Assembly: GCA_043797125.1 (NCBI GenBank)
Contig: JAZDPX010000023.1
Location: 3,098-67,097 of the forward strand
DNA length: 64,000 bases
DNA from: Candidatus Omnitrophota bacterium
GTDB lineage: Bacteria; Omnitrophota; Gorgyraeia; JABMRG01; JAFGKX01
Reading direction: 5' to 3'
Shown: piece after piece, positions 18,878 to 56,772 of the stretch
Numbering within the stretch: the first letter of the stretch is position 1
Layout: every line of letters starts with the position of its first letter
Translations under genes and position numbers: made by a program
The notes under the pieces: generated by a model
What the model saw: only the letters and a program-made list of their open reading frames with translations
Databases searched by the model: none
Told to the model about the DNA's origin: nothing

Positions 18878-18892
18878 TGGCGGAATAACACT

Positions 18893-21062: not shown

Positions 21063-21069
21063 ATACTCA

Positions 21070-23591: not shown

Positions 23592-23628
23592 CGCAAAAGA
23601 AACAATAAAGCGTCAAAAGAGGGATCAT

Positions 23629-26679: not shown

Positions 26680-26694
26680 TTTGCTAAAGACAGC

Positions 26695-27405: not shown

Positions 27406-28115
27406 AATGTCTTTTAACTATGTTTTGTTATAACGAAAAAGGCAAAATTGAAAAGGTCCTTGAAAAATTCAGCGATTATGGCATCTACGATGCTGCGGTA
27501 ATGGATGATGGTTCAACAGATGGCAGCTTAGCCGATATAGGCAATTTTTTTCCCAAGGTTACCGTATTAAAGAACTCCGTTAACATGGGAGCAGGTTACA
27601 GCGTAAGAAAAGTCTTGTATTATGCCAGAGATAAGGGCTATGATGCTGCTATTTTTGTTGCCGGCAACGATAAGGACAACCCGAATGACGTCAAAAAATT
27701 AATAGCGACCATGGAAGAAGGCTTCGATTTTGTTCAGGGATCCAGGTATTTGCCGGACGGCAAATACGGTAATATGCCACTTCATAGAACAATTGGAACT
27801 AAGCTTATTCATCCCATGATTTTTTCGTTATTTACAGGAAGAAAGCTTACGGATACTACTAATGGTTTTCGTGCGGTAAAATTGTCTATTCTCGAAGATA
27901 AAAGAATTAATTTGGATCAAGAGTGGCTTGACAGATACGGACTAGAACCCTATTTGTATTATAAAGCTATTGTTTTAGGCTATAGAGTGAAGGAAGTTCC
28001 TGTTACAAAAATTTATCCTGAAGGCCAAAAGAAGTATACCAAGATGCGCCCCATAGTTGACTGGTGGAGTATTTTAAAACCTTTATTTTATTTAAAGCTA
28101 GGGATAAAAAATTAG
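27390..28115 (+). CDS. family 2 glycosyltransferase (polyprenyl-phosphate sugar synthase-like)
   Basis: MDDGSTDGS DxD region; short GT2-A protein. Sits directly upstream of a GT-C-like membrane protein. Confidence 0.6.
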   Translation: MRGLMKCLLTMFCYNEKGKIEKVLEKFSDYGIYDAAVMDDGSTDGSLADIGNFFPKVTVLKNSVNMGAGYSVRKVLYYARDKGYDAAIFVAGNDKDNPNDVKKLIATMEEGFDFVQGSRYLPDGKYGNMPLHRTIGTKLIHPMIFSLFTGRKLTDTTNGFRAVKLSILEDKRINLDQEWLDRYGLEPYLYYKAIVLGYRVKEVPVTKIYPEGQKKYTKMRPIVDWWSILKPLFYLKLGIKN

Positions 28116-28134
28116 ATTAGGACTAGATTAAGAT

Positions 28135-29544: not shown

Positions 29545-30932
29545 TGAATATTTTATTAATGATACCCATAAACAAAAGCTATGTAATCGCTCCAAGTTTA
29601 GGTTTGGGTTATTTAGCGGCTGTATTAAGAAAAGGTAATTCAGTAAACATACTACATTGCATAAAAGAAAGCTTTAATTTCAATAAGTTTAGAAAATATT
29701 TGAACGAAAGCAACTTCGATTTAATAGGAATGCAGATGATGTCTTACGACCTTTTGCCGGCCAAAACGCATATAGATATAATTCGTAATTCTAAGTGTAA
29801 AAATAGCATTATTGTTGTGGGCGGCCCACATCCTTCAGGTGACCCAAAAGGCACTTTGAATTATTTGCAGGGAGCAGATTTCGCTTTTAAAGGAGAGGCA
29901 GAAATAGGATTAAACCGTTTTGCAGAATTAGCCAAAGGCAAAAACTTAAAAGAAGATAGGCTGGAAGGTATATCTGGTTTAGTATGGCGAAAAGACAATG
30001 GCGTTGCGATTAATGAAGTTGAATATATTGATGACCTTGATTCAATACCGTTTCCTGCGTGGGATATTATAAAGCCGCAAGAATATCCGCCAGCCCCGCA
30101 CGGCGCCTTTTTTAAAAGCCTTCCCGCAGCGCCGATTATAATAACCCGCGGTTGCCCTTTTATTTGCACATTTTGTGCAGGTAAATGCATAACAGGAAAT
30201 AAGGTTAGAAAGAGAAGCGCTAATAATGTTATGGAAGAGATAAAATATCTGATAAAAGATTTTGGTATTTATGAATTTATGATAGAAGATGAAAACTTTA
30301 CGCTGCATAAAAATTTAGTATTAGAATTCTGTGAGGCGCTAATAAAAAATAATTTGAGCATCGGTTGGAGTTGTCCATCGGGAGTTAGATTAGATACATT
30401 AGATCTAGAGATGATAAAAATGATGGAGAAATCAGGATGTCATTCTTTAAGCGTTGGCATAGAGTTTGGAAGTCAGCGCATGCTCGATTTTACTAAAAAG
30501 AATATAACGCTAGATAAAATAAAGGAAAAAATAACGCTGATAAGGAAAACCAGCATAAAAATAACTGGGTTTTTTATGATGGGAATGCCAATGGAGACAG
30601 AACAGGATATGAAGCGAACAGCGGTATTTTCCAGGGAGCTTGACATAGACAGAGCCCAGTTTAACAACTTTATGCCTCTTCCGGGCAGTGCTTTATATGA
30701 AAACTTGCTTGGAGCTGATGCATTGGACGCAGAGGCTACAAAACATTTTTTTGTCCACGATGTAGGATATGTGCCGGAATGCCTTACGGCTAAAAAATTA
30801 AAAGCCCTGCAAAGGCAGGCATATCTTAAATTTTATTTAAGGCCTAAAACGATGTGGAATATTCTAAAAGAAATAAAGGATTATAACCACCTAATGAAGC
30901 TTTTGTATCGTTTTTACGATGCTATAATATGA
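29544..30932 (+). CDS. B12-binding domain radical SAM enzyme
   Basis: ITRGCPFICTFCAG (CxxxCxxC) after an N-terminal B12-binding-like domain. 462 aa. Confidence 0.7.
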   Translation: MNILLMIPINKSYVIAPSLGLGYLAAVLRKGNSVNILHCIKESFNFNKFRKYLNESNFDLIGMQMMSYDLLPAKTHIDIIRNSKCKNSIIVVGGPHPSGDPKGTLNYLQGADFAFKGEAEIGLNRFAELAKGKNLKEDRLEGISGLVWRKDNGVAINEVEYIDDLDSIPFPAWDIIKPQEYPPAPHGAFFKSLPAAPIIITRGCPFICTFCAGKCITGNKVRKRSANNVMEEIKYLIKDFGIYEFMIEDENFTLHKNLVLEFCEALIKNNLSIGWSCPSGVRLDTLDLEMIKMMEKSGCHSLSVGIEFGSQRMLDFTKKNITLDKIKEKITLIRKTSIKITGFFMMGMPMETEQDMKRTAVFSRELDIDRAQFNNFMPLPGSALYENLLGADALDAEATKHFFVHDVGYVPECLTAKKLKALQRQAYLKFYLRPKTMWNILKEIKDYNHLMKLLYRFYDAII

Positions 30933-32104
30933 GGATTATGAAAAAACGCATTCTTTTTATCGATCATCATGCAGAGTTAGGTGGAGGGGAGATAGCCCTG
31001 CTGGAAATTATGAAAAATCTAAACAGAGATAGATTTTCACTGCTGGCGCTCTTAGGAAACAGCGGAGAATTTGCCAATCAGTTAACAAAAGCCGGCGTAG
31101 AGGTAATAGTTGATAAATTGCCAAGTTATTTTAGGAATTTAGACAGGGACCCGGCAAAAAGAAATGGGCTGTTCTTATTCATGAAATCTGCTTTTTCGTT
31201 AGGTTCTTTTATCAAAAAAACTAAAAATGCCATTATAGAAAAAGACATAGATATTGTATATATCAATTCGATAAAAAGCTCTCTCTACGGCGTGCCTGCG
31301 GCAAAACAAACAAAGCGAAAAATAGTTTGGCATTTGCATGATTGTTTAAGCAGGGAATTTTATTCGCCATGGGTAATGCCTATAATTGTCCGGTTATCAC
31401 ATGCGGCAGATAGGATTATTTGCGTTTCAGAGACAGTAAAGGAATATTTTACAGCAGCAGGCGGCAGAGCAGAAAAAGTAGCTGTTATATACAACGGAGT
31501 TGATATTGAAAAATTTAATCCCGCCATTTCTACAGAGGCCGTAAAAAGGGAGTTTAATATTGCAGATAGGAAAGTAGTTTCTGTTGTCGGCAGGCTAGAA
31601 CCATGGAAAGGCCAAAGAGTTTTTATAAAAGCAGCGAAAATAATATGCCAAAAACGTGATGACGTTATCTTTTTAATTGCGGGGGCTCCCTTTTTTGGCT
31701 TTTACGATTATGAAAGAGAAATTAAAGACATGGTGAATCAGTTAGGACTTAAAGAAAGGGTGATTTTCCTGGGCTTTAGGCCAGATGTAGAACAGATTTA
31801 TGTTGTTTCAGATATTATAACCCATTGTTCCCTTAGGCCTGAGCCTTTCGGAAGAGACATAATAGAGGCCTTTGCCTGCGCGAAAGCGGTAATTTCAACT
31901 AATTTAGGCGCGCCGAAGGAGATCATATCCGAAAAAGAAGGTATTTTGATAGAGCCTGATAATCCCGAAATCTTAGCAGCTGGGATAATGGCGCTGTTGG
32001 ATGACACGCGCAGGCTTAAGCAGTTAGGTGAAGGCTCAAGAAATAAGGCAAAATGTTTGTTCAACATTACTGAAATCGCTAAACATATTGAACGGCTTTT
32101 ATAG
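30929..32104 (+). CDS. family 4 glycosyltransferase
   Basis: GT-B architecture with EPFGRDIIEAFACAKAVIST in the C-domain. Confidence 0.6.
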   Translation: MRIMKKRILFIDHHAELGGGEIALLEIMKNLNRDRFSLLALLGNSGEFANQLTKAGVEVIVDKLPSYFRNLDRDPAKRNGLFLFMKSAFSLGSFIKKTKNAIIEKDIDIVYINSIKSSLYGVPAAKQTKRKIVWHLHDCLSREFYSPWVMPIIVRLSHAADRIICVSETVKEYFTAAGGRAEKVAVIYNGVDIEKFNPAISTEAVKREFNIADRKVVSVVGRLEPWKGQRVFIKAAKIICQKRDDVIFLIAGAPFFGFYDYEREIKDMVNQLGLKERVIFLGFRPDVEQIYVVSDIITHCSLRPEPFGRDIIEAFACAKAVISTNLGAPKEIISEKEGILIEPDNPEILAAGIMALLDDTRRLKQLGEGSRNKAKCLFNITEIAKHIERLL

Positions 32105-32165
32105 AGAATACAAGTGGACAAAGACGTTTTATATGCTATTATTTTAGGCAGGAGACATTGGCGCT

Positions 32166-33593
32166 ATGTTTAGAGAAAGAATAAGATTCTTTATTGAGCT
32201 GGATATTGTTTTTGACATAATATTGGTGGCACTTTCTTTTATCGTGGCCATTATAGCGAGAGAAGGATATCTATACGGCAACGTAGGCGTAAGAGAATTA
32301 TTTATGTTGTTTGGCCAGCAGGCGTGGATTTTACTTATAGCATACCCATTTATTATGGTTTCCTTATTTTTAGGCAAGGCCTACGGCCCGCTTCGGTTTA
32401 GGCCTTTGCATTCCATAAGCTGGATGATAATCAAAAGTTTTATTTTTACCGTTGTCGCCTTGGCTTTTATACTTTTTATATTCAAGGTTCAGCTGGTAAG
32501 CAGGTTGTTTTTAGTCAGCTTTGGGGTTATAGGAAGCTGTATTTTTATATTAAAAAAATTTCTTGAAATCTCATTCTTGCAATTCTTTCGCCAAAAAGGC
32601 CTGAATCTTAAATATATCGCGCTGGCCGGGCAGAAAGATGATTTTGACAATATAATAAATAAGATTAAACAGAATCCGGAATATGGCCTGGAGATAGTAG
32701 CGCTTATTAAATTAGGCCAAGATAAAAGCCCGAACAAGAGCGAAGACCCGCGTTTGTATTATGGTCTGGAAGGGCTGGAAGCCGCCTTAAAAGAAAAGGT
32801 AATAGATTATATATTGTTTGCAGGCTACAAAGGCATGGAGGATGAAATAGAAAAAGGGTTGTTTATATGTGAGGAACACGGCGTTGAAACCTGGCTGGTT
32901 ACGGATTTTTTTCATATGAATATTGCCCAGCAGGATATTGATGATTTTTTTGGAATGCCGGTTATTATTTTTAGATCATCGCCGCAATTCAGTAAAGCAA
33001 TTGTTGTAAAAAGGCTTATAGATATTTTAGTATCAGCGGCGGTGTTAGTATTATGCATTCCGTTATTCGTTTTGATAGCGCTAATTACCAAAGCCGAATC
33101 CCTGGGCCCTGCTATATTTTCTCAAAAAAGGTCGGGTTTAAACGGCCGCGTATTTACGCTCTATAAATTCAGGTCTATGGTTTCTGAAGCTGAACAAGAG
33201 AAGCAGGAGCTGGAAAAGTTTAATGAAATGAGCGGCCCAGTATTTAAGCTCACAAACGACCCGCGCGTTACAAGATTTGGCAGGTTCTTGAGAAGGTGGA
33301 GTTTAGATGAATTTCCGCAACTCATTAATGTTTTAAGAGGCGAAATGAGTTTAGTTGGCCCCAGGCCTTTGCCTGTATATGAGGCAGAAAAACTAAAAGG
33401 CTGGCAGAAAAGAAGGCTGCGTATGAGGCCAGGCTTGACCTGCTTGTGGCAGATAAGGGGCAGGAGTAAAGTAGATTTTGGTAAATGGATGGAGTATGAT
33501 TTAGAATATATTGATAACTGGCGCCTATGGCTTGACTTTAATATTTTATTCAAAACCATATTTGTAGTATTTTCCAGCAAAGGCGCATATTAA
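32166..33593 (+). CDS. polyprenyl-phosphate sugar-1-phosphate transferase (WbaP/EpsB-type initiating glycosylphosphotransferase)
   Basis: N-terminal TM helices. C-terminal bacterial sugar transferase domain with RVFTLYKFRSM and DEFPQLINVLRGEMSLVGPRP. Confidence 0.8.
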   Translation: MFRERIRFFIELDIVFDIILVALSFIVAIIAREGYLYGNVGVRELFMLFGQQAWILLIAYPFIMVSLFLGKAYGPLRFRPLHSISWMIIKSFIFTVVALAFILFIFKVQLVSRLFLVSFGVIGSCIFILKKFLEISFLQFFRQKGLNLKYIALAGQKDDFDNIINKIKQNPEYGLEIVALIKLGQDKSPNKSEDPRLYYGLEGLEAALKEKVIDYILFAGYKGMEDEIEKGLFICEEHGVETWLVTDFFHMNIAQQDIDDFFGMPVIIFRSSPQFSKAIVVKRLIDILVSAAVLVLCIPLFVLIALITKAESLGPAIFSQKRSGLNGRVFTLYKFRSMVSEAEQEKQELEKFNEMSGPVFKLTNDPRVTRFGRFLRRWSLDEFPQLINVLRGEMSLVGPRPLPVYEAEKLKGWQKRRLRMRPGLTCLWQIRGRSKVDFGKWMEYDLEYIDNWRLWLDFNILFKTIFVVFSSKGAY

Positions 33594-33961: not shown

Positions 33962-35284
33962 ATGAAAGTAAGCCTGCAAACGCGCCTTATTACTCTAATG
34001 GTTATATTTTCAGTCCTTTTTATCGCTATATTTACCAGCATACAGGTATATAATCAGCTAAACAGGACCACTGATTTTAATTATCACAGAGCCAGGACAG
34101 GAGCGCTGCTTTTGCAGCTTAACCTTCAGAATGCCATAAAAGATATTAGCGAACAAAATGCGCAGCAAAGGGCAGAGAGGGTAAAACAGATAGTAAACGG
34201 GTTGTACAGTTCTAATATAATTGGCGAGACTTTAATAATAGATAAAGACGGTAAAGTCGCATATTCTACAGACAGGTTCGCCGGTTTAGATCAAGATGAC
34301 ATCCAGATAATAAAAAAGAATTTTATTCCTCCTTATTCACTTGATAAGATTTACTCAGACGTCGATAAAAAAACAAAAACCATAAGGCTCTTTATACCTT
34401 TTACAGATGTTCTTCTGGCAAAAGTAAAATACGATTTGGGCAATATATACAGGGCATTAGGAGAAGTTTACATACCGATTATGATTACGGTCCTTGCGGT
34501 AATATTTGCCAGTATGTTCATAGGCGCATTTTTGTCGCGCAGCATAATATATCCCATAAGCGCCTTAAACACAGTTACGAGCGAAGTGGCAGCAGGCAAT
34601 TTGGACCGCCGCGTAAACATAAAATCCGGGGACGAGTTAGAGGAATTGGCGAATACCTTTAATTATATGACCATAGAGTTGAAAAAAATGAAAGAGAAAG
34701 CTGAAAACGCAAATCCCCTGACAAAGCTCCCCGGCAACATAATAATCCGCGAGGAAGTGGAAAGAAGAATAAGGGATAATGAAATGTTTTTGGTTATATA
34801 TTGCGACCTTGATAATTTCAAGGCCTTTAATGATAAATATGGCATTGAAGCCGGAGATGAAGCTATAAAATTGATCGCCACCATATTAAAGGAAGCTGTT
34901 GCAAAAAAAGGAAAACCCGGCGATTTTATCGGCCATGAGGGCGGCGATGATTTTATTCTGTTGACGCGACCTGAAAGAGCGCAGGATATAGCGGATTTCA
35001 TAATAACAGAATTTGACAGAAGAATCAGGATATTATACAAAAAGGAAGATTTAGAGCGAGGCTATATTGAAGCGAAATCAAGGCAGAATGAATTATTGAA
35101 GTTTCCGATAATGAGCATTTCATTGGCAGGCGTGACCAACGAAATCAGGCCGATAAATTTATACGGCGAGGTTACCAACATAGCCGCTGAAATGAAAACC
35201 AAAGTTAAGGCCACGGGCGGAAGCTGTTTTCTTATAGACAGAAGAAGTATGCCTTGGCCTGAAGGCGCGCAAAGGCCTGCATAA
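33962..35284 (+). CDS. membrane sensor GGDEF-domain protein (periplasmic domain, HAMP, GGDEF variant GGDDF)
   Basis: TM1, a ~150-aa periplasmic region, TM2, a HAMP-like segment, then DLDNFKAFND...GHEGGDDF. The signature is GGDDF, not GG(D/E)EF, and no RxxD I-site is seen. Confidence 0.65.
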   Translation: MKVSLQTRLITLMVIFSVLFIAIFTSIQVYNQLNRTTDFNYHRARTGALLLQLNLQNAIKDISEQNAQQRAERVKQIVNGLYSSNIIGETLIIDKDGKVAYSTDRFAGLDQDDIQIIKKNFIPPYSLDKIYSDVDKKTKTIRLFIPFTDVLLAKVKYDLGNIYRALGEVYIPIMITVLAVIFASMFIGAFLSRSIIYPISALNTVTSEVAAGNLDRRVNIKSGDELEELANTFNYMTIELKKMKEKAENANPLTKLPGNIIIREEVERRIRDNEMFLVIYCDLDNFKAFNDKYGIEAGDEAIKLIATILKEAVAKKGKPGDFIGHEGGDDFILLTRPERAQDIADFIITEFDRRIRILYKKEDLERGYIEAKSRQNELLKFPIMSISLAGVTNEIRPINLYGEVTNIAAEMKTKVKATGGSCFLIDRRSMPWPEGAQRPA

Positions 35285-35290: not shown

Positions 35291-35803
35291 TTATTGCTGT
35301 TGTTCTTGCTGAGTTTCTTGCTGTTCTTGCTGTCTTTTAAAACCGCCATCCAGGTTACTATTATAAGTTCCTTCCATAAAAACTGAAGGTGAAACAAACC
35401 CTATATCCTCGGTAGCGGGCGGCGTTACGCTGGTTAAACCATCCTGCGACTTATTTCTATATCTATATTCACCGGTAGGGGTTTTTTGCAAATTGCCGGT
35501 TGCTATATTGTCTGCGTTATAGAACGTATAGGTGTTTTTAGCTTTATCCTGTTTTAAAGCCCCAAGCTTATTGCCTTCATTATCATAGTATTCATAATCC
35601 CCGCTGTAGGTCTTCTTGGAGTAGCCGGTCTTATTGCCGTTTGCATCAAAATAGTCATAGCCGCCAAGCTCATTTTTCTTGGTATTGCTCATTTGGCCAT
35701 AATCTGCCTGCTGATAATACTGGGCAAATACAGGTGCCTCGTGCACGAATATCATGCATGCCAATATGGTCAATAATATAATACATAGTGTTATTTTTCT
35801 CAT
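35291..35803 (-). CDS. secreted repeat protein, hypothetical
   Basis: N-terminal signal peptide, three Y-x-Y-x-D-x-x-G-N-K-x-G repeats, and a Q/E-rich C-terminal tail. Convergent with the GGDEF gene. Confidence 0.45.
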   Translation of the reverse strand: MRKITLCIILLTILACMIFVHEAPVFAQYYQQADYGQMSNTKKNELGGYDYFDANGNKTGYSKKTYSGDYEYYDNEGNKLGALKQDKAKNTYTFYNADNIATGNLQKTPTGEYRYRNKSQDGLTSVTPPATEDIGFVSPSVFMEGTYNSNLDGGFKRQQEQQETQQEQQQ

Positions 35804-35975: not shown

Positions 35976-36257
35976 ATGCCAAAAGATGTTATTTTAAAGA
36001 AAAATCCGGATATTGTAACCCGCACCATAGATGATGAGACGATACTTTTGCCTATTTATAAGAGCTCGGATGAAATAAACTGCATATATACACTAAATGA
36101 ATCAGCCTCAAAAGTATGGGATCTAATAGACGGAAAGCGCACATTGTCGGCGATTAAAAAGGAAATTGTGGAAAAATTTGACACCACAACCAAAGAAGTT
36201 GATAAGCAAATAAGTCTTTTGCTGAAAGATCTAAGGCAGATAAAGGCATTAGAGTAA
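35976..36257 (+). CDS. PqqD-family peptide chaperone (RiPP recognition element, RRE)
   Basis: 93-aa protein with the PqqD-like pattern (IVTRTIDDETILLP...ASKVWDLIDGKRTLSAIKKEIVEKFD). AAAGGAG SD upstream. Confidence 0.6.
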   Translation: MPKDVILKKNPDIVTRTIDDETILLPIYKSSDEINCIYTLNESASKVWDLIDGKRTLSAIKKEIVEKFDTTTKEVDKQISLLLKDLRQIKALE

Positions 36258-36319: not shown

Positions 36320-36772
36320 TTGCTTTTCGTAAAAAAAATTCTTGCGAAAATTATTTTATTCCTGCAATCATACGCCCCGTATCGTAAATTAACAAAATTT
36401 ATTTTATATAGAAATATAACCTTCAGGGTAACTGTAGAGGCTGATGGCTATAAGGCCGTGGCTATGAAGAACAATCGGGCTATCGCCAAGGTATTTTTAG
36501 GTTTCAGCGATAAGTATTCTCCGGAAGGGTGGTGGTTGCAAGCTTTAGGGGTAAAGGTTTTATATCGGCGCTTAGGTATCGGCAGGCAGTTGGTTATAAG
36601 ATGCATCGATTTTATTAAAGCGCAGAAGGGGGCATGCATTGTTTTCAGCAATGTGCATAAAGATAATATTGCTTCAATGAAATTATTTAGCGGATTAAAT
36701 TTTAAAATAATGCCGTGGCCGCAGGAATCATTATCCAAAACGCAAAACAGATACGCATATATAATAAAATAA
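36320..36772 (+). CDS. GNAT-family N-acetyltransferase
   Basis: LYRRLGIGRQLV (acetyl-CoA binding motif A-like) and the GNAT fold order. The track start is TTG, so the true start is uncertain. Confidence 0.5.
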   Translation: MLFVKKILAKIILFLQSYAPYRKLTKFILYRNITFRVTVEADGYKAVAMKNNRAIAKVFLGFSDKYSPEGWWLQALGVKVLYRRLGIGRQLVIRCIDFIKAQKGACIVFSNVHKDNIASMKLFSGLNFKIMPWPQESLSKTQNRYAYIIK

Positions 36773-37819
36773 ATGGCAATAAAAAAACAAGGTTATGCAG
36801 TTTTTTCCAACAGAATTCACCGGCTGGCAAACGAAGAACGTTTTCCGTTGCGGGCGATGTTTGAATTGACTTACCGCTGTAATTTTAAATGCATCCATTG
36901 CTATAATACTGAAACGCAGAAGAAGACAAAGCCCCAGAATGAGTTAACTACCAGGCAAGTATTCGATATTCTTACGCAGCTTAAAAGAATAGGATGTCTT
37001 TACTTAGGCTTTACGGGTGGCGAGATATTTTTGCGCCATGATATACTGGATATTATTATATATGCGCGTAAATTAGGCTTTGAGCTTATTCTTTTGACCA
37101 ACGGCTCGCTTATAAATAGAAAGGTAGCCGACAGGTTAAGTAAGCTTAGATTGAATAAAATAGATATAACCGTGCATGCTATGAATGATGGTATTTTTGA
37201 TAAGATTACACAAATACCCGGTTCTGCTAAAAAGGTATTTCGGGCAATAAAGTTGCTTTACAAAAGAAATATTCCGTTGGGTCTTAAAAGTTGCGGAATG
37301 CGCGAAAACAAAGATGAAGTTGTCAAAATACAGAAATTTGCCAGCGGTATAAAAGCCATTTACCGATTAAATACAGAGTTATTAGCCTGCAATGACCGCG
37401 GCAAGACGCCGTTTGAACATCGTCTTTCTGCCGTAGAACTTTATTCTCTATACAAGGATTACTATCCAGAAGGTTTTGCTTTTAGGGCCGTAAAAAAAGA
37501 AAAATCAGGGCATATTTTTCCCTGCGGGGTAGGCAAAACAGATTTGACCATTAACCCTTTCGGAGGATTACAGTTATGTTTGGCAATAGATTATCCAAAA
37601 TATGATATATTGAAAGGCGGATTAGCCTTAGGCTGGCAAAAGATAAAAGAATTTGTTGATGAGCTCAAAGCGCCAGCAGGCTGGGTATGTGCCAAATGTG
37701 ATTTGGTTCCTTTTTGCAGGCGGTGTCCGGCCAAAGGATATTTGGAAGACGGAAATTTTTTTAGCTGTAATCATTATAGCCGCCAGCAAGCAGAATTCAT
37801 CAAGGAAATGCAGGCATAG
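36773..37819 (+). CDS. radical SAM / SPASM-domain peptide-modifying enzyme (paralog 1 of 3)
   Basis: FELTYRCNFKCIHCYN (CxxxCxxC) and a C-terminal Cys cluster CAKCDLVPFCRRCPAKGY (SPASM/twitch auxiliary cluster). Confidence 0.7.
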   Translation: MAIKKQGYAVFSNRIHRLANEERFPLRAMFELTYRCNFKCIHCYNTETQKKTKPQNELTTRQVFDILTQLKRIGCLYLGFTGGEIFLRHDILDIIIYARKLGFELILLTNGSLINRKVADRLSKLRLNKIDITVHAMNDGIFDKITQIPGSAKKVFRAIKLLYKRNIPLGLKSCGMRENKDEVVKIQKFASGIKAIYRLNTELLACNDRGKTPFEHRLSAVELYSLYKDYYPEGFAFRAVKKEKSGHIFPCGVGKTDLTINPFGGLQLCLAIDYPKYDILKGGLALGWQKIKEFVDELKAPAGWVCAKCDLVPFCRRCPAKGYLEDGNFFSCNHYSRQQAEFIKEMQA

Positions 37820-37851
37820 CAGTAGTAAAACTAAAAAACGGAGGTGGTATT

Positions 37852-38064
37852 ATGGCAAATAAAAAGAAATTTAAGCCGCAAGTTACGCGGGTTAAGCTTA
37901 ACCCTGAACAGGCAGTGTTGGGATGCAGCTGTTATGATATTGGGATATACCATATTGACCATTTAGAAACACGAAGTTTTAATGCGTGCATCCCTGAAGC
38001 AAAAGAGTATGATACGCGCGCTACTCATTGCGTAGGAGACCCTGCGGGGATTCTTACAAGCTAA
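37852..38064 (+). CDS. candidate RiPP precursor peptide (70 aa, 4 Cys, C-terminal Ser)
   Basis: Strong SD GGAGGTGG 5 nt upstream of ATG. Lys-rich leader-like N-terminus MANKKKFKPQVTRVKLNPEQAVLG. Core CSCYDIGIYHIDHLETRSFNACIPEAKEYDTRATHCVGDPAGILTS. Sits between two SPASM radical SAM genes. Confidence 0.5.
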   Translation: MANKKKFKPQVTRVKLNPEQAVLGCSCYDIGIYHIDHLETRSFNACIPEAKEYDTRATHCVGDPAGILTS

Positions 38065-38065: not shown

Positions 38066-39142
38066 TTGATGAAGGAGATAGACAAATTTAAATTTTATAG
38101 CCATCTTAGAAGCAGGAGTAGCCACCAGCCCCTAATTGGGCAACTGGAGCTTACGTATAGGTGTGGGCTTAATTGTATTCATTGCTATTGCAAAGGAAGT
38201 GAAGATAAAGAAAAGGAATTGGCTACTCGAGACTGGAAGCAAATATTGGATATGCTGCAGAAAGAAGGCTGTGTTTGGCTTAATCTTACCGGAGGAGATC
38301 CTTTAATTCGGGATGACTTTCTGGAAATTTACTCTTATGCCAAAGCTAAATGTTTTATTGTTTCAATTTTCAGCAGCGGATATGGTTTTAACTGTGAAAC
38401 TATCGAATATCTGGTCAAAATACCGCCCCATTCCATAGAGATTACATTAAACGGCATTACTCAAAGCACTTATGAATCCATAACACAGACAAAAGGTTCT
38501 TTTTTCGCGGCTATGCGCAACATAAGGTTATTGGCCTCAAAAAACTTACCGCTTATTATAAAAACGAACTGCATAAAGCAAAACCGGCATGAATTAGTGA
38601 GGATAAAACATTTCACTGAAGAGCTTTTAGGCAAACCATACAATAAGCATTTTTTTAGATATGATCATACTATACATCCAAGACTAAACGGAGACAAAAC
38701 ACCGTTAAGTTACAGGCTTTCTTTTGAAGAAATAGCCGAAACGAAAAAAGAGGATAAGGATATATGGCAGGAGTATCACAAGGCGTTAAAAGCCCGCACT
38801 CACAGTTTACCAAGAGAGGCAGATTTTCTTTACCAGTGCAATTCCTGGAAGCGGCAATTTATTATAGACCCTTACGGTAAGCTAAGACTATGTACCTTGT
38901 CAAAAAAACATAATATCGATTTAAAAATCGTATCCTTTAGGGAGGGATTTTATAATATACTTCCCGGGGTTTTAGAAGAGAGGTTTAAAACACCCTCCAA
39001 ATGCCGCTTATGCCATTTAAGGTCTTTATGCTATAATTGCCCTGCCAGAGCGTATCTTGAAACAGGTAACGAAGAGTTGCCGGTGGAATATTTTTGTCAA
39101 TTCGCGGAACAAACATACAGATACGAAAAGAATGAATTATAG
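38066..39142 (+). CDS. radical SAM / SPASM-domain peptide-modifying enzyme (paralog 2 of 3)
   Basis: LELTYRCGLNCIHCY and C-terminal CRLCHLRSLCYNCPARAY. The track start is TTG 38066; the ATG is at 38069. Confidence 0.7.
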   Translation: MMKEIDKFKFYSHLRSRSSHQPLIGQLELTYRCGLNCIHCYCKGSEDKEKELATRDWKQILDMLQKEGCVWLNLTGGDPLIRDDFLEIYSYAKAKCFIVSIFSSGYGFNCETIEYLVKIPPHSIEITLNGITQSTYESITQTKGSFFAAMRNIRLLASKNLPLIIKTNCIKQNRHELVRIKHFTEELLGKPYNKHFFRYDHTIHPRLNGDKTPLSYRLSFEEIAETKKEDKDIWQEYHKALKARTHSLPREADFLYQCNSWKRQFIIDPYGKLRLCTLSKKHNIDLKIVSFREGFYNILPGVLEERFKTPSKCRLCHLRSLCYNCPARAYLETGNEELPVEYFCQFAEQTYRYEKNEL

Positions 39143-40055
39143 GATTAGATTAAAAATAGCCGGCGTCTTAATTCAGATGGAAAGCAAGCACCCGTTGCAG
39201 AAGTTTAATCTTAAGCAGCAGAGACAAAGAAGACATGGACGCTTCCATAATTTTTTCTATCATGGTAGGCAAAAGCCGCAAGTCAGGATTAAGATAGAAA
39301 TAAAAGATAAATTACCAAAAATAAGCAAAAAGGCAAAAGAGCTTTTTCTTACTAAAAATTTTGACGGAATAGGAACGAATTGGCGCCTTCTAACATACAA
39401 GGGCGGTTATATTTACAAAAATTTTGTTAAGGCCAAAAAACAGATTATGACGATGGACAAAAATTTTAAAAGCATAACCGTTTTTCTTTTGCCAAAAAAC
39501 AAACAACGCGTGTGGGATATGGCGGACATCGTATATGATTTTTTGCAAATTTTGCTAATAAATTATTTTGCGCGTTATAAATTAGGCATTTTTGCGCATG
39601 CCATGGGAGTGAAAGATGTTAATAAAAACGGCTTTCTTTTTTTAGGAGAGTCTGGCGCAGGCAAAAGCACAATGGCCAGAATATGGCACAAGCATACAAA
39701 GGCGCAGATTTTAAACGATGATCGCGTAATTATACGGCGGGAAAACAACGGCAATTTTTTTATTTATGGCACGCCGTGGCATGGAAATTTTAGCGATTAT
39801 CTTGGCGCGCGCATGGAAAAAGCCAGGCTGGTCAAATTATTTTTTATATATCATAACTCCCATAACGAAGCAAAGCGCATTGTTCAGAAGGCGGCATTTA
39901 GATTTTTTTATCCTGCAATATTTCCCACATTTTGGGATAAGGAATATTTGGAAAACATCGCCTCATTATCCTGTGATTTGTTGGATAGGGTGCCTTGTTT
40001 TCGTTTAGGATTTGTTAATGATAAAAATATAATTGAATTTGTAAGAAAGAAATGA
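39132..40055 (+). CDS. HPr-kinase-related P-loop kinase (lasso-peptide-kinase-like)
   Basis: Walker A FLGESGAGKST and the HprK C-terminal-domain-like fold order. The start is moved to the in-frame ATG 39132 (or 39177) because the track ORF 39057 start overlaps the upstream gene. Confidence 0.5.
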   Translation: MNYRIRLKIAGVLIQMESKHPLQKFNLKQQRQRRHGRFHNFFYHGRQKPQVRIKIEIKDKLPKISKKAKELFLTKNFDGIGTNWRLLTYKGGYIYKNFVKAKKQIMTMDKNFKSITVFLLPKNKQRVWDMADIVYDFLQILLINYFARYKLGIFAHAMGVKDVNKNGFLFLGESGAGKSTMARIWHKHTKAQILNDDRVIIRRENNGNFFIYGTPWHGNFSDYLGARMEKARLVKLFFIYHNSHNEAKRIVQKAAFRFFYPAIFPTFWDKEYLENIASLSCDLLDRVPCFRLGFVNDKNIIEFVRKK

Positions 40056-41116
40056 GAGAAATCCCTTATAAAGATTTTAGCTTTACCACACATAAGAAGA
40101 ACTGGCAAAGAGACGCATTAAATGTTTGTAAATTAGAATTAACTTTTAAATGCGGCTTACATTGCCGGCATTGCTATTCGGATTGCTATAATCGTGATTC
40201 TTGTATAAAAGAAGAGTTAAAAACGCAGGATGTAAAATATACCCTAGATAAGCTTTATGCAAGCGGTATAATATGGCTATGTTTTACCGGCGGCGATCCG
40301 TTAACAAGGAACGATTTTTTAGATATTTACACTTATGCTAAAACTAAAGGCTTTATCATCTCAATATTCAGTAATGGTTATTCCATGACGGAGACAATAG
40401 CCGCTTATTTGCAAAAAACTCCCCCGTTTTCATTTGAAATTACCTTAAACGCAGTAACACGGAAAAGATATGAAGAGATCTCACAAGTCAAAGGTTCCTT
40501 TGGCAGGACAATGGCTGGCATAGATATGTTGATAGAAAAAAAATTACCTCTTAAGATAAAAACTCAGATTACCCAACAAAACTTTGACGAATTAAAACAA
40601 ATTGAACATTTTATAATTGGCTTAAGGCTGAAACCCACGATGAATTTTGCGCTGTGCCCGCGTTTAAACGGCGATTTAGAGCCTACACGACTTAGAATAC
40701 CACCCGAACAAGTAAGGAGTTTAAAGGTGCGGGAAAATACCTCAAGTGAATATTGTAAGAAAAACCAGAATGGAAATAGCAAACCAAAGCACACAGGCCT
40801 TTTTCTCTGCGCTATAGACGGGGATGGAATACATATTGACCCCTACGGCAATGCCTTTCCCTGCAATTTAATAAGAAAACCTAATTTTAATTTGCTCAAA
40901 ACAAACATTGAGTTAGTGCGTGCTGAGCTGCTGTCACTGGCGCGCGGTAAAAAATTCACTACAAGTTCAGGATGCAGGTTCTGCAATTTAAGGCAGAATT
41001 GCTTAAATTGCCCCGGCAATTCATATTTAGAGACAGGTGACCAGGAAAGGCCGGTTGATTATTATTGCAAGTTGGCGAAAGAGGTCTTGCATGTTAACAA
41101 AATGGACGCGGTTTAA
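40052..41116 (+). CDS. radical SAM / SPASM-domain peptide-modifying enzyme (paralog 3 of 3)
   Basis: LELTFKCGLHCRHCY and C-terminal CRFCNLRQNCLNCPGNSY. Confidence 0.7.
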   Translation: MREIPYKDFSFTTHKKNWQRDALNVCKLELTFKCGLHCRHCYSDCYNRDSCIKEELKTQDVKYTLDKLYASGIIWLCFTGGDPLTRNDFLDIYTYAKTKGFIISIFSNGYSMTETIAAYLQKTPPFSFEITLNAVTRKRYEEISQVKGSFGRTMAGIDMLIEKKLPLKIKTQITQQNFDELKQIEHFIIGLRLKPTMNFALCPRLNGDLEPTRLRIPPEQVRSLKVRENTSSEYCKKNQNGNSKPKHTGLFLCAIDGDGIHIDPYGNAFPCNLIRKPNFNLLKTNIELVRAELLSLARGKKFTTSSGCRFCNLRQNCLNCPGNSYLETGDQERPVDYYCKLAKEVLHVNKMDAV

Positions 41117-42785
41117 TCATTATCTTTATCCGCATTGGAAACGCCTGGCGTTAACCATCTTTTTGGGTTTGGTCAGTATGTTTCTAGCTTTAATTAATCC
41201 ATATCTAATCAAATTAATGATTGATAAGGCTTATCCTCAGCACAACTTGAAATTATTTTTACTTTTTGCTTTAACAGGAGGCATTATTTTCGCTCTTATA
41301 ACGATAATCAATTCGTATAGCGGTTATCTAAACCAGCGCGTTAACTCACTTGTCAAATTCAGGCTGACAAATGATATCTTCCGGTGTTTACAGCAAAAGG
41401 ATTTGGCCTTTTTCAGGGATAAATCCGCAGCCGAACATCTTTACAAAGTAAACAGCGATGTTGGCATGGTGAGCAATTTTATTTGCGTATATATGCCGCA
41501 ACTGATTATTTTAGTGCCCAGGAGTTTTTTTATTTTAGCAATTGTATTTTTTCTTAATTGGAAGATAGCTTTATTATCGGTTTTGATTGTTCCGTTATGC
41601 TGTATTAACCCATATTTCTTTAAAAGATGGCTTAGGGACGCGCAGAAGCGGCTGGTAGATAAAGCGCAGAAGGCATTTTTTAGCCTTCATGAAGCATTCA
41701 GCCATATTTTATTGACCAAGGTTTTCCACAAAGAGAAGCAATGTGCGGAAAAGTTAGAGAAAGAAATAGAAAAAGTTATGTACTTTGAATGCAGAAATTC
41801 AAGATTATTAGCCATAAGCGGCCTTTCTAATTCTTTATTGAATAAAACCTGTAGCGGCATAATTGTGATATATTGCGGATACCAGGTAATAAGCGGCAAT
41901 ATGACCTTGGGGGATGTGTCGGCAGTAATGATATACCTTATGCAATTTTTCGCCCTGGCGATTGCATTAGCCAGGTTTTCTGACTCATTGGCTATAAATT
42001 CAGTTTCACAGAATCGTTTAGATGAGATTTTTCAGGCACAGCCGCTTATAAAAGATTATCCGGGCGCTAAGGACTATTCTATTTTACGCCCCAGCATCGA
42101 ATTCAAGGATTTAACTTTCGGATACGCAGAAAAGAAAGTGATCCTGCGTGGAATAGGTTTTTACATAGAGCCCTGCCAGAAAATAGCCTTAACAGGGCCA
42201 TCAGGCTGTGGGAAAACCACACTGCTTAACTTGCTTTTGAGGCTTTACGAACCTTGGCGTGGAGAAATTTTTATTGATGGTCATGAACTCAAGGATTTTA
42301 GGATAGGGTCATTGCGTGAGCAAACAGGCATAGCGTTGCAGGAACCTTTTTTGTGGGATAGCACCGTTAAAGATAATATTCTTTATGGAAACGAGAATGC
42401 AACCATAGATGAGCTTATTGAAGCCTCAAAGATTGCCCAGGCGCATGACTTTATTTTAGGTTTGCCACAGCAGTATGATACGCAGATCGGTGAGATGGCA
42501 TGTAAGATTTCGGAGGGCCAGAAACAGCGTATTGCCATAGCGCGTGCTGTAATTAAAAAGCCAAAAATATTGATTTTAGATGAAGCAATGGCGTCTATTG
42601 ATTCCGAGACCGAAGGTAAAATTGTGGAAAATCTGAAAAACAACTTAAAAAATTCTACAATTATTGTGATTTCGCATAATTCCGCTACTTTGCGAAAGAT
42701 GGATTCGGTATATTTTTTTAAAAATCCATCAGAAATAATACCTTGCCATGACGAAAAACTTCAGGAAAAATATATTATTAATTAA
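41091..42785 (+). CDS. ABC transporter, fused permease/ATP-binding protein (peptide exporter type, no N-terminal C39 peptidase domain)
   Basis: Six N-terminal TM helices, then Walker A GPSGCGKTT, signature ISEGQKQRIAIARA and Walker B ILILDEA. The start is moved to ATG 41091. Confidence 0.75.
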   Translation: MLTKWTRFNHYLYPHWKRLALTIFLGLVSMFLALINPYLIKLMIDKAYPQHNLKLFLLFALTGGIIFALITIINSYSGYLNQRVNSLVKFRLTNDIFRCLQQKDLAFFRDKSAAEHLYKVNSDVGMVSNFICVYMPQLIILVPRSFFILAIVFFLNWKIALLSVLIVPLCCINPYFFKRWLRDAQKRLVDKAQKAFFSLHEAFSHILLTKVFHKEKQCAEKLEKEIEKVMYFECRNSRLLAISGLSNSLLNKTCSGIIVIYCGYQVISGNMTLGDVSAVMIYLMQFFALAIALARFSDSLAINSVSQNRLDEIFQAQPLIKDYPGAKDYSILRPSIEFKDLTFGYAEKKVILRGIGFYIEPCQKIALTGPSGCGKTTLLNLLLRLYEPWRGEIFIDGHELKDFRIGSLREQTGIALQEPFLWDSTVKDNILYGNENATIDELIEASKIAQAHDFILGLPQQYDTQIGEMACKISEGQKQRIAIARAVIKKPKILILDEAMASIDSETEGKIVENLKNNLKNSTIIVISHNSATLRKMDSVYFFKNPSEIIPCHDEKLQEKYIIN

Positions 42786-44169
42786 TCCTAGGGTAATAAG
42801 ATACAGAAGCTATCCTTCGGTAGCATTAGCCAGCATAGGGTCTTATCTGCGTAGTAATGGTTGTAATGTAAGAATAGTTGATAGCAATTTTACAAATGAA
42901 GACCCATACCGCGTTTTGGCAAAGACAAACGGAGAATATTTAGTCGGTATAAGTTGCGAATCTAAAAATATCGAAGAGGCCCTTAAGATAGCGGTATACG
43001 CCAAAGAAAAACAAAATATTGTTGTAATGGGGGGGTTGCATGTTTCCCTGGCGAAAGAGAAGATACTGGACAATATTTGCGTGGATTACGGAATATATGG
43101 AGACGGCGAATTATCACTCCTTAAATTGATTGAGGCTCTGGATGAAGGCCTTCCTTTGGAAGATGTGCCTGGATTAATATACAAATTCACCGGGCAGATA
43201 AAGGTTAATGAAAAGGGACAGGCGGCAAATTTAGATGAGTTGCCCTTTCCCGATTATAAGCTGGCAGGAATTAACAGAATATCCCAATATCCGCTTATAA
43301 CGAGCAGGGATTGCCCTTATAAATGCACTTATTGCACTGTCGGGGCGATTTCGCACGGAAGTTGGCGTATACGCAGCCCAAAAAACGTAATAGCTGAATT
43401 GAAATACGCAAAAGAAACTTACAATATTAAGAGTTTCATTATATTTGATGAAAACTTTTCTCATGATATGGAGCGGGTTAAGATGTTTTGTCTGATGCTG
43501 CTTAAAGAAAATCTTATTTTGCCTTGGGCCGTTATAGAGGGTATGCGCGCCGATAAAGTTGATAGGGAGTTTCTTAGGCTGCTAAAAGTCTCAGGGTGTA
43601 AGGATATTATTTACGGGGTTGAAAGCGCGGATGAGAAGGTTTTTGAGAATATATCGAAAGGGGGAAAATTTTTAACGATAGAAAAAGCGATTGATTTGGC
43701 AAAAGACGAGGGCCTTGAGGTGGGAGCCTATTTTGTTATAGGGCTGCCGGGAGCGACTTTTGAATCGGAAATGAAATCTATTGAATTCGCAACAAAACAC
43801 AATCTTAGCCCTTGCGTATTCTGGATGGCAATACCATATTACAATACGCAGCTTTATGAATGGGTCCTGAAAAACGCCAAGCTTTTAAGAGAGCCTACGG
43901 GTGAGAACCTGGTAAATTCCCTGAGCACAGAGCCGTTTTTTGAAACAGAAATCTTCCCAAAGGATAAAGTGAAAAAGGCATTTGTCATGGCTCAATTAAG
44001 TATCGGAAACTATAGTTTTTATGAAGACCACGACGGCAAAAAAATCTCAAAAATCTTTAGGTTTTTACTTGTGTGTCTGTATATGTTGAGATATGACTTA
44101 TGCAGTTTGTGGAGTTTTCTGGCCTCTGGTAGGCGGCTGAAACAAGAAAGTTTTGCATATGGTAAATAA
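42748..44169 (+). CDS. B12-binding domain radical SAM enzyme
   Basis: ITSRDCPYKCTYCTV (CxxxCxxC) after an N-terminal B12-binding-like domain. Third such enzyme in the window. Confidence 0.7.
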   Translation: MTKNFRKNILLINPRVIRYRSYPSVALASIGSYLRSNGCNVRIVDSNFTNEDPYRVLAKTNGEYLVGISCESKNIEEALKIAVYAKEKQNIVVMGGLHVSLAKEKILDNICVDYGIYGDGELSLLKLIEALDEGLPLEDVPGLIYKFTGQIKVNEKGQAANLDELPFPDYKLAGINRISQYPLITSRDCPYKCTYCTVGAISHGSWRIRSPKNVIAELKYAKETYNIKSFIIFDENFSHDMERVKMFCLMLLKENLILPWAVIEGMRADKVDREFLRLLKVSGCKDIIYGVESADEKVFENISKGGKFLTIEKAIDLAKDEGLEVGAYFVIGLPGATFESEMKSIEFATKHNLSPCVFWMAIPYYNTQLYEWVLKNAKLLREPTGENLVNSLSTEPFFETEIFPKDKVKKAFVMAQLSIGNYSFYEDHDGKKISKIFRFLLVCLYMLRYDLCSLWSFLASGRRLKQESFAYGK

Positions 44170-45103
44170 AATAAAAAATGAAAAAATAAATAGGGTGAAC
44201 CGATGGTCTGATTTAAGAGCGCATGAGATTATGATAAGGGATAAGCTAAGGACCCTTTCCTACAAAAAGGCCATAGAAGATAATATTAAATCCGGTGATG
44301 CGGTTTTGGATGTCGGCTGCGGCACCGGCATATTATCTTTTTTTGCGGCAAAAAAAGGATGCAAAAAAGTTTATGCAATAGATAAATCCGCCATTATAGA
44401 TGATGCCAAAAAGACAGCGCAGCTAAATAATCTCCAAGATTGCGTTGAATTTATTAAAATAGATATACTAAAATTTAAACCAAAAGAGAAGATGGATGTA
44501 ATACTGCATGACCAGATAGGCAACTTTGTATGGGATGAAGGCCTTATTTCTAAAATAACTTATGCAAGAGACAGGTTTCTTAGTCAGGGCGGCACGATGA
44601 TTCCTTATAAAATAGATTTATGCTTTGTGCCCGTGGATTATGAATCGGCTTTTGAGAAATCCATTTTGTTTTGGTCTAAAAAGAAATACGCGTTAAATTT
44701 CAATAATCTTGCCAAGAAAATGCTTATACAGCAGATTTACAATTCGCTCCATCCGTATATAATTAAGCTTAAAAATAAGAAAGTTTTTTTGTGTAAAGAA
44801 AAGCTAATTTATAGTATCGATTTAAAAAAAGAAAAACGCCTGCCTGAAAAATTGACAGCAAATTTTAACTTAAAAAAAGGCTCAAGGCTTACTGGTATGT
44901 GCATATATTTTAAGGTACACCTGGATAAAAAAAATATTTTCTCTACGGCGCCTAGAGCTGTAAACAGCCACTGGGGCCAGATATTTTTGCCGTCTTTTGA
45001 GCAAAAGCAAATAAAGCAGGATTCTGTTTTAAATTTCACATTATTTCCCCAAATTTCTCCTAAAAAATGGAAGTTCGAATTTAAGATAATAAAAAAGACA
45101 TAA
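44153..45103 (+). CDS. SAM-dependent methyltransferase, protein-arginine-methyltransferase (PRMT)-like
   Basis: VLDVGCGTGILSFFAAKKG motif I, the post-I acidic motif and a C-terminal beta-barrel-like region, as in the PRMT fold. Confidence 0.45.
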   Translation: MHMVNKIKNEKINRVNRWSDLRAHEIMIRDKLRTLSYKKAIEDNIKSGDAVLDVGCGTGILSFFAAKKGCKKVYAIDKSAIIDDAKKTAQLNNLQDCVEFIKIDILKFKPKEKMDVILHDQIGNFVWDEGLISKITYARDRFLSQGGTMIPYKIDLCFVPVDYESAFEKSILFWSKKKYALNFNNLAKKMLIQQIYNSLHPYIIKLKNKKVFLCKEKLIYSIDLKKEKRLPEKLTANFNLKKGSRLTGMCIYFKVHLDKKNIFSTAPRAVNSHWGQIFLPSFEQKQIKQDSVLNFTLFPQISPKKWKFEFKIIKKT

Positions 45104-46797: not shown

Positions 46798-46828
46798 TTG
46801 ACTTTATATAATTTTGTATGTTAATATA
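46798..46828 (+). promoter_or_regulatory. possible sigma70-type promoter (TTGACT-N18-TAATAT) for the export operon
   Basis: In the AT-rich 140-nt intergenic region before the Wzc-like gene. Weak. Confidence 0.3.
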
Positions 46829-46885
46829 TTAAATTATGTAATAATATTTCTAAGACTTACTAGTTTTAAAAAAAAGGATATAAAA

Positions 46886-49910: not shown

Positions 49911-49924
49911 GACAAACAAATTTT

Positions 49925-51640: not shown

Positions 51641-51641
51641 T

Positions 51642-53497: not shown

Positions 53498-53506
53498 GCC
53501 AAAAAA

Positions 53507-55297: not shown

Positions 55298-55305
55298 GGA
55301 CAAAA

Positions 55306-56568: not shown

Positions 56569-56570
56569 TA

Positions 56571-56720: not shown

Positions 56721-56772
56721 TTCTGCTTCGCCGTGCTACTTGCGTGCACGGCTTCGCAGGAATGAAGCAGAA
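56721..56772 (+). terminator. long GC-rich hairpin directly after tRNA-Ser (terminator or processing structure)
   Basis: TTCTGCTTCGCCGTGC-N7-GCACGGCTTCGC...GAAGCAGAA nested inverted repeats, followed by TGTTTCT. Confidence 0.4.

Follow-up and report, generated by a model that had tools for sequence, protein, structure and literature searches.

A probable RiPP precursor and its radical SAM maturation cassette in Candidatus Omnitrophota

The canonical SynChlorMet (Scm) cassettes are those of Syntrophobacter and Chlorobium, and, going by its TIGRFAMs description, no precursor is known for this type of cassette. In the biosynthesis of pseudomycoidin, the C-terminal Ser of the precursor is phosphorylated by the HprK-family kinase PsmK, the Asp-Asp double mutant of which is inactive, and the uncharacterised nucleotidyltransferase (NTP-transferase) PsmN is required for the addition of hexose to the phosphate (PMC6993621). 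Another type of peptide modification, the conversion of Arg to ornithine, is ascribed to the peptide-arginase family PF12640 (PMC12703449). The present analysis deals with a small gene (positions 37852–38064, + strand) in a 64-kb stretch of DNA from a Candidatus Omnitrophota bacterium, the whole of which is called the window below, and with the cassette of radical S-adenosylmethionine (SAM) and other enzymes in which it lies. We consider it likely that this gene encodes the precursor of a conserved maturation cassette, found mainly in Omnitrophota, of the type that makes ribosomally produced peptides with post-translational modifications (RiPPs). From its product a modified peptide of a new class is very probably made, and the family to which that product belongs is proposed here to supply the uncharacterised ScmC proteins (PF27840) with a concrete substrate.

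The peptide and its family

As the first-pass annotation had described it, the open reading frame (ORF) runs on the + strand from an ATG at 37852 to a TAA at 38062–38064 and codes for 70 residues, MANKKKFKPQVTRVKLNPEQAVLGCSCYDIGIYHIDHLETRSFNACIPEAKEYDTRATHCVGDPAGILTS, which NCBI lists as the hypothetical protein V2A72_04295 (metagenome-assembled genome (MAG) of Candidatus Omnitrophota, 133,936-bp contig). The translation places Cys at positions 25, 27, 46 and 60 and Ser at position 70, the last one, again in agreement with the earlier description. The gene does lie between two genes for radical SAM enzymes (rSAM) of the SPASM type, rSAM_A ending at 37819 and rSAM_B starting at 38066 or 38069. 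The strong Shine–Dalgarno site reported for it is present as well, except that the spacer is not of 5 nt: the 8-mer GGAGGTGG occupies 37840–37847 on the + strand, 4 nt before the ATG (7 nt if counted from the GGAGG core), which is a trivial difference. GGAGGTG occurs a single time on the + strand of the window, at this very site, and it is the best Shine–Dalgarno match in the cassette, the neighbouring enzyme genes having weak matches or none. A second copy of the peptide was looked for across the window and none was found.

An exhaustive HMMER search of a library of 1.84 billion proteins (E<=1e-3, clusters at 50% identity) retrieved 574 cluster representatives related to the peptide, nearly all of them 63–99 residues long; a word-indexed search returned the peptide itself and one relative. 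The profile search gave 603 proteins, with an E-value of 3e-18 for the window peptide; the named ones are all called 'hypothetical', and none carries a Pfam domain. When the peptide and 100 members of its family were scanned with Pfam and NCBIfam, no family model was found, and full-text literature searches with the motif and the cassette names yielded nothing describing the family. A match to StsA, seen for seven members (best E 0.014), was marginal and was treated as compositional noise.

The sequence signature of the family is strongly asymmetric. Over 148 members, the N-terminal consensus reads M-x-[KR]-K-P-K-F-[KR]-P-x-I-T-R-V-K-L-N-P-E-Q-A-V-L-x-C-x-C-Y-[DN]-x-G, in which F7, P9, L16, E19, Q20, C25 and C27 are invariant. 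Residues 1–31 are near-invariant as a whole, in front of a hypervariable tail of 18–72 residues in which Gly, Ser and Thr abound. The tail of 147 of the 148 members contains one further Cys or more, so positioned that the third Cys comes 16–27 residues after C27 (mode 19), and it is followed 3–7 residues later by a Lys or Arg in 121/147; a fourth Cys, where present, lies 9–19 residues beyond the third. In an alignment of 100 sequences, C25, C27 and this third Cys are invariant. The other fixed point is the very end of the chain, which is Ser in 139 and Thr in nine, hence Ser/Thr in 148/148 database members, and likewise in 75 of the 77 complete genomic copies. The two endings of another kind belong to truncated copies of 38–39 residues (L026, 2576, and L054, 3377; such handles designate the related loci), which have kept the leader, have lost the core and the terminal Ser, and are probably decaying paralogues.

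The window peptide is a typical member of this KF[KR]PxITRVKLNPEQAVLxCxCY[DN]xG...[ST] family. Its leader (residues 1–24, MANKKKFKPQVTRVKLNPEQAVLG, 37852–37923) carries the invariant F7, P9, L16, E19 and Q20 and is followed by the CxCY[DN]xG motif (residues 25–31, CSCYDIG, 37924–37944) with the two invariant cysteines. The hypervariable core (residues 32–69, 37945–38058) contains C46 (37987–37989), K51 and C60 (38029–38031), and the codon of Ser70, the candidate phosphorylation site, occupies 38059–38061. All spacings take the commonest family values, with 19 from C27 to C46, a Lys at +5, 14 from C46 to C60 and 10 from the last Cys to the end of the chain. Modelled alone with AlphaFold, the peptide is disordered (predicted local distance difference test (pLDDT) 58), as expected for a precursor, and the model gives no structural clue beyond this disorder.

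Leader and core were compared in orthologues and in paralogues. Between the orthologues of L004 and L005, the 24 leader codons have accumulated 11 synonymous and 0 non-synonymous changes; the ratio of non-synonymous to synonymous change (pN/pS) is 0.33 for the core and 0.21 for the adjacent rSAM_B gene. In paralogue pairs of a single locus, the leader is near-identical even at synonymous sites and the core is highly diverged, as in L007 (leader pS 0.08, core pS 0.37, core pN/pS about 1.5). The 574 relatives, the profile E-value and the purifying selection in orthologues place the ORF far beyond chance, and by these signs the gene is translated and selected. The precursor character proposed in the first-pass annotation is thus borne out by the conserved leader, the hypervariable core, the three invariant Cys, and the maturases and recognition element encoded next to it. 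A short ORF that is conserved in its leader, varies in its core and is accompanied by genes for maturases and for a leader-recognition element (here PqqD) is what is found in RiPP precursor loci, so that by genomic criteria the peptide is a RiPP precursor. That it serves as the substrate of its own cassette appears highly probable.

The cassette and its proposed mode of action

A scan of species-representative genomes gave 62 loci, the ORFs of which were classified against the proteins of the window; components were counted over the 28 loci in which 6 kb or more of DNA lies on either side of the peptide. These loci come mostly from Candidatus Omnitrophota MAGs and single-amplified genomes, with a few labelled Elusimicrobia, Planctomycetales, NPL-UPA2, WOR-3 and other phyla. 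Conservation of the peptide in syntenic loci was the check set by the first-pass annotation, and the answer is positive, with a linkage that extends over about 60 loci. PqqD accompanies the peptide in 26 of the 28 loci, rSAM_A and rSAM_B in 24 each, rSAM_C and ScmC in 25 each and an ATP-binding cassette (ABC) exporter in 24; a S24-like peptidase (20/28) and an NTP_transf_5 domain (17/28) are also frequent, either fused or as separate genes, and a B12-binding rSAM occurs in 10/28. No homologue of the GNAT and PRMT-like genes of the window was found in the 62 related loci (0/28 among the well-flanked ones). The gene order is shuffled, the commonest gene before the peptide being PqqD (28 cases) and after it rSAM_B (33 cases); the relative found by the word-indexed search has the order PqqD, peptide, rSAM_B, rSAM_A, ScmC, rSAM_C, ABC. 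A six-frame motif scan detected the peptide in 60 fetched loci, 15 of which hold two or three paralogues that share their leader and differ in the core. The reverse test, made on loci reached from ScmC homologues, retrieved the peptide in 4/4, with one to three copies each, some of which had been overlooked by gene callers.

The coupling to PqqD goes as far as in-frame run-ons of the two genes through a Glu/Arg/Lys-rich linker (L021, 7151–7987; L029, 11487–12233; L030, 8847–9620, from one Omnitrophota MAG; also protein P0148). The junction codon in L030 is TTA, which leaves the peptide without a start codon of its own and suggests that recognition protein and substrate are naturally fused; these run-ons are probably natural fusions of a RiPP recognition element (RRE) to its precursor. 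Orphan family members of full length, around which no gene of the cassette lies within 10 kb, are also found (L028, 10001; L043, 6341; L051, 9986), so that some precursors are encoded apart from their presumed maturases. AbiEii-type toxin genes and transposases (Transposase_mut, Y1_Tnp) were seen in or beside metagenomic cassettes (L066, 6953–7744; L067, 105–3862; L068, 6813–7664), and in L066 and L067 the rSAM genes are interspersed with glycosyltransferases.

In the window, the cassette genes are all on the + strand and tightly packed or overlapping. A PqqD-family protein, the RRE-type peptide chaperone (35976–36257, Pfam PqqD 2.7e-11), is followed by the GNAT acetyltransferase (36320–36772), an accessory confined to this locus, and by rSAM_A (36773–37819). 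Beyond the peptide come rSAM_B (38066–39142, its ATG probably at 38069), which starts 2–5 nt past the peptide stop, the ScmC-family protein (39132–40055), rSAM_C (40052–41116) and the ABC exporter (41037–42785, starting with GTG at 41037 or ATG at 41091), which comprises a transmembrane domain and an ATPase and has no C39 peptidase domain; its L001 orthologue matches PF00664 and PF00005. Further downstream are the B12-binding rSAM enzyme (42748–44169), a frequent accessory and a probable C-methyltransferase, and the PRMT-like SAM methyltransferase (44153–45103, PRMT_C 4.4e-11), again confined to the window locus. The last gene (45115–46743) encodes a signal-peptidase-I/S24-like domain with GASMSP, VHR and GDN motifs fused to an NTP_transf_5 domain (PF14907); this fusion may combine a candidate leader peptidase with an enzyme decorating phospho-Ser.

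Each of the three enzymes rSAM_A, rSAM_B and rSAM_C has a CX3CX2C motif and the full seven-Cys SPASM pattern. Among PDB entries rSAM_B matches SkfB best (1.3e-18) and PqqE next, and in NCBIfam these enzymes most resemble heme/NirJ-type enzymes and the peptide maturases PqqE, MftC, SkfB, StsB, AlbA and PapB.

The HprK-like gene is, as had been pointed out, the second one downstream of the peptide. Its product (P0152) is assigned to Pfam ScmC PF27840 by a precomputed match and scores 15.3 bits with NCBIfam TIGR04249 against a cut-off of 125. Homologues of this protein number 521, all of them hypothetical. In 36 aligned sequences, the P-loop residues G172, S174, G177 and K178 and the stretch N195-D196-D197-R198 are invariant. 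A profile search against PDB sequences gave weak P-loop matches alone, and the placement of the protein needed a fold search: its model (pLDDT 87.8) matches ATP-dependent phosphoenolpyruvate carboxykinases (PEPCK) at 3e-7 and HPr kinase/phosphorylases (HprK/P) at 2e-5 to 1e-4, the two groups having one common kinase fold. ScmC is accordingly predicted from the alignment and the model to be a P-loop kinase of the PEPCK/HprK type. The first-pass annotation had seen in the terminal Ser the target of this kinase. The conserved end of the peptide, the presence of ScmC in 25/28 loci and the kinase fold all fit, and the phosphorylation itself is what we infer from them. With a Ser/Thr end throughout the family, a ScmC that is near-obligatory and an NTP_transf_5 that is frequent, the logic of pseudomycoidin is the most economical one, and by this analogy phosphorylation of the C-terminal Ser has a nearly even chance of being right.

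Methylation of Arg by the PRMT-like enzyme had also been suggested. As a feature of the system this idea does not hold, the gene having been found in 0/62 related loci; because the PRMT and GNAT genes are confined to the window locus, such a methylation would at best be a peculiarity of that locus. A different, putatively Arg-directed enzyme is common in the relatives, in which a PF12640 (UPF0489) protein with a TPR domain adjoins PqqD in 26 distinct loci (L001, 8279–9715; L056, 8116–9621, for example). This gene is absent from the window, where the PRMT-like methyltransferase and the GNAT are found instead. Arg accounts for 8.4% of core residues when the PF12640 gene is present versus 2.4% when it is not (Mann–Whitney p=6e-4, no phylogenetic correction), and the cores of PF12640 loci are often devoid of Lys. 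Core Arg content thus tracks PF12640, which brings independent circumstantial evidence that the core is the substrate of the enzymes and suggests that Arg is a preferred decoration site in the family. The Arg-rich cores found with PF12640 also lend some plausibility to the PRMT idea, for the window locus alone.

In the maturation scheme that we propose, PqqD would bind the leader (about residues 1–24, its presumed RRE binding site) and present the peptide to the three rSAM/SPASM enzymes, which would crosslink the invariant cysteines C25, C27 and C46 and, in the window peptide, C60. Thioethers would be the most likely crosslinks, a suggestion drawn from the sequences that we hold with rather less than even confidence, and sactionine-like alpha-carbon chemistry or a C25-X3-D29 ranthionine would be favoured. 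Alpha-carbon thioethers are the most plausible ones in the tail, where acceptor residues are not conserved, since the nature of the side chain would be irrelevant to them. Residue 29 (C25+4) is D, N, S or T in 120 of the 148 members, and this C25-X3-[D/N/S/T] arrangement resembles the CX3D motif of PapB substrates. ScmC and ATP would phosphorylate the Ser70 hydroxyl, as HprK-type kinases do in paeninodin and pseudomycoidin, and the NTP_transf_5 domain may next decorate the phosphate. The signal-peptidase-like domain fused to it would cut off the leader at V22-L-G24|C25. This cleavage between G24 and C25 is predicted from V22 (146/148 members) and a small residue at position 24 (S/A/G/T in 111/148), a −3/−1 pattern fitting a signal-peptidase-I-like domain; a GxSMxP motif is present in 28 of the 30 S24-like homologues examined. 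The mature product would then be exported by the ABC transporter, and the B12-rSAM, PRMT-like and GNAT enzymes would add decorations that vary by locus or are confined to the window locus.

Taken to its full extent, this scheme would describe a new RiPP class spread through the phylum Omnitrophota and its neighbours, in which one leader serves hundreds of hypervariable cores that are multiply crosslinked, C-terminally phosphorylated, possibly glycosylated and tied to the machinery of the cell envelope and of exopolysaccharide (EPS); all these features together are rather unlikely to prove correct. Such products, if they exist, could be surface-linked or exported effectors of ultra-small, possibly host-dependent bacteria, and the long-missing type of substrate of ScmC-type cassettes would be supplied. 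Omnitrophota is, to our knowledge, a phylum without cultured and chemically studied members. The proposal, if true, would give a name, a signature and an enzyme set to a hidden family of at least 574 clusters, all annotated as hypothetical, many copies of which are not even called as genes. No case is known in which several radical SAM enzymes of the SPASM type mature a peptide that is also phosphorylated at its C-terminal Ser by an HprK-type enzyme, and a leader and an enzyme set tolerating almost any core would be attractive for peptide engineering.

Other explanations and the polysaccharide locus

Several observations weigh against the scheme proposed above. The crosslink type, the phosphorylation and the cleavage site are all matters of inference, the three Cys alone are invariant, and the residues that should accept the crosslinks are not conserved. 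None of the rSAM, PqqD and ScmC proteins passes the curated cut-off of any NCBIfam maturase family, and with the sacti- and ranthipeptide families in particular (AlbA, SkfB, StsB, PapB) the rSAMs reach 50–75 bits, the cut-offs being 300–850. For ScmC, the structural matches have low TM-scores (0.25–0.45), and the sequence similarity to HprK is weak (E 0.2–0.9 with PDB sequences, 0.006 with Pfam Hpr_kinase_C). The statistic on Arg content is uncorrected for phylogeny, and the NTP_transf_5 and S24 domains are missing from about one-third of the loci. Lastly, a simple model of a secreted peptide does not account for the repeated placement of the cassette in polysaccharide-export loci.

This unexplained association motivates the idea that the modified peptide is part of the EPS machinery, in which, through a phospho-Ser glycosylated by NTP_transf_5 or by glycosyltransferases, it could serve as primer, cap or anchor of a glycan, or else as a signal that controls EPS. 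The cassette of the window is indeed embedded in a long polysaccharide locus (+ strand, 14343–33593 and 46814–57675) with glycosyltransferases, Bac_transf, Wzz/BY-kinase, Poly_export and an XrtA/PEP-CTERM-type ATPase-like gene; many relatives have Poly_export or GNVR genes at the flanks of the cassette, with glycosyltransferases inside or adjoining it, and phospho-Ser is extended with hexoses in pseudomycoidin (PMC6993621). Against this idea, Poly_export is found within 10 kb in just 7/28 loci and GNVR in 3/28, the dedicated ABC exporter and the hypervariable cores better fit diffusible or contact-dependent effectors, and no enzyme is known that polymerises a glycan on a peptide phospho-Ser. 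An involvement in EPS is thus improbable in our view, even though the recurring placement hints at a link between the modified peptide and the cell envelope. The combination of PqqD with PqqE-like SPASM rSAMs recalls instead the logic of pyrroloquinoline quinone (PQQ) and mycofactocin, where PqqA and MftA are sacrificial scaffolds. The CxCY[DN]xG motif or the terminal Ser would then be the source of a cofactor-like molecule and the variable region a mere spacer, in keeping with the position of all invariant residues in the N-terminal 31 (otherwise just the terminal Ser/Thr is family-wide) and with the high rank of PqqE and MftC among NCBIfam/PDB matches. Against this, the Cys spacing of the core is constrained, with K/R after the third Cys, and the core composition co-varies with a putative Arg-modifying enzyme. 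The hypervariable cores, the two or three paralogues of differing core in one locus and the exporter belonging to the cassette make a cofactor precursor unlikely, and the scores are far from the cut-offs (PqqE 64–90 bits vs 381, MftC about 85 vs 265); we regard it as an outside chance.

Two further possibilities can be given still less weight. Three or four Cys could bind a metal, and the peptide might be an independent metal-binding or regulatory protein travelling with the cassette, the rSAMs acting on something else, for instance a sugar, a lipid or a peptide from another locus; the orphan copies (L028, L043, L051) and the other B12-rSAM and sugar-modifying genes nearby could be read in this way. 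Predicted disorder and hypervariability over two-thirds of the sequence are unexpected in a folded regulator, the coupling to PqqD is tight, in-frame fusions included, and no other candidate peptide is conserved in the related loci, which makes an independent protein very improbable. As for the lasso peptides, with which the first-pass annotation had drawn a parallel, the terminal Ser, the PqqD, the HprK-like kinase and also NTP_transf_5 are found together in paeninodin and pseudomycoidin clusters (PMC6993621), and this part of the analogy stands. The literal reading of the peptide as a kinase-type lasso precursor can practically be discarded: neither a lasso cyclase (Asn-synthetase-like) nor a transglutaminase-like B2 protease was matched by Pfam or NCBIfam among the cassette genes, three SPASM rSAMs are there instead, and lasso_PqqD of NCBIfam gives 29 bits vs 80. 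Membership in the lasso peptides was rejected on the absence of cyclase and B2 protease. A RiPP precursor matured by its own cassette is the explanation that we retain.

The surroundings of the cassette show some features of their own. Upstream are glycosyltransferases, sugar-modifying enzymes, a Bac_transf gene and a second B12-binding radical SAM gene (29544–30932), which lies among the glycosyltransferases, outside the cassette. A HAMP-GGDEF protein of the diguanylate-cyclase type (33962–35284) comes between the sugar transferase and the cassette and may reflect control of the locus by cyclic di-GMP. It is followed by the sole minus-strand gene of that stretch (35291–35803), for a protein of 170 residues that has no Pfam match. 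Its N-terminus resembles a signal peptide, its repeats (YDYFDANGNKTGY, YEYYDNEGNKLG, ...) are rich in Tyr, Asp, Asn and Gly, and its tail is rich in Gln and Glu. Downstream of the cassette are Wzz/BY-kinase, Poly_export, a second BY-kinase, the AAA_22 gene, an HD protein, a TPR protein, Wzz and DUF3108. The AAA_22 gene is the XrtA/PEP-CTERM-type ATPase-like one (218 bits vs a cut-off of 324); no exosortase was recognised in the polysaccharide locus of the window. A similar set of AAA_22, HD, TPR and Poly_export genes flanks the L001 cassette, and Poly_export and GNVR recur in other loci. The 3' end of the window (57707–62355) encodes a large serine recombinase (− strand), a GmrSD_N+HNH protein and an adenine methyltransferase of the EcoRI type, and resembles an islet of mobile or defence genes that adjoins the EPS locus.

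Comparison with described systems

The system has the architecture of the Scm cassettes, with a homologue of PqqD, a protein bearing the Pfam ScmC domain (though scoring 15 bits vs 125 with the NCBIfam ScmC model) and several SPASM enzymes similar to PqqE. It differs from them by its three rSAMs rather than two, by its lineage (Omnitrophota, Elusimicrobia) and by scores well below the equivalog cut-offs (ScmD 27.1 vs 100, ScmE 66–75 vs 400, ScmF 50–61 vs 400). In-locus paralogues with a near-identical leader and unrelated cores are reminiscent of the prochlorosin-type families, from which the phylum and the enzymes differ, rSAMs and a kinase being found here rather than LanM. The peptide-arginase RiPPs (OspR, FlmR, OhkR; pfam12640) offer another parallel, since most relatives have PF12640 and Arg-rich cores (PMC12703449), whereas the putative arginase homologues have here a C-terminal TPR domain and the window is without the gene.

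Closer to the proposed chemistry are the sacti- and ranthipeptides, such as subtilosin/AlbA, SKF/SkfB, streptosactin/StsB and freyrasin/PapB, with which the present system has in common a small precursor, a leader, Cys donors and an RRE. Both the conserved Cys donors in the core and the SPASM maturases with their CX3CX2C motif are found here. On the other hand, there are three SPASM enzymes per peptide, a stand-alone PqqD in place of a fused RRE domain, an obligatory partner of kinase fold, a conserved terminal Ser/Thr and a hypervariable core. The phosphorylated lasso peptides provide the counterpart of the remaining part. In paeninodin (PadeK) and pseudomycoidin (PsmK/PsmN), an ABC exporter and PqqD likewise go with a Ser-ended precursor, an HprK-family kinase with Asp-Asp and an uncharacterised nucleotidyltransferase (PMC6993621). 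The terminal Ser, the PqqD and a ScmC of kinase fold, with its predicted activity, are what the window locus holds of a kinase-type lasso cluster. Unlike those clusters, it contains rSAMs, and its ScmC has an extra N-terminal beta-rich domain. By analogy, the whole would work like a combination of the logic of sacti- and ranthipeptides with the kinase module of phosphorylated lasso peptides.

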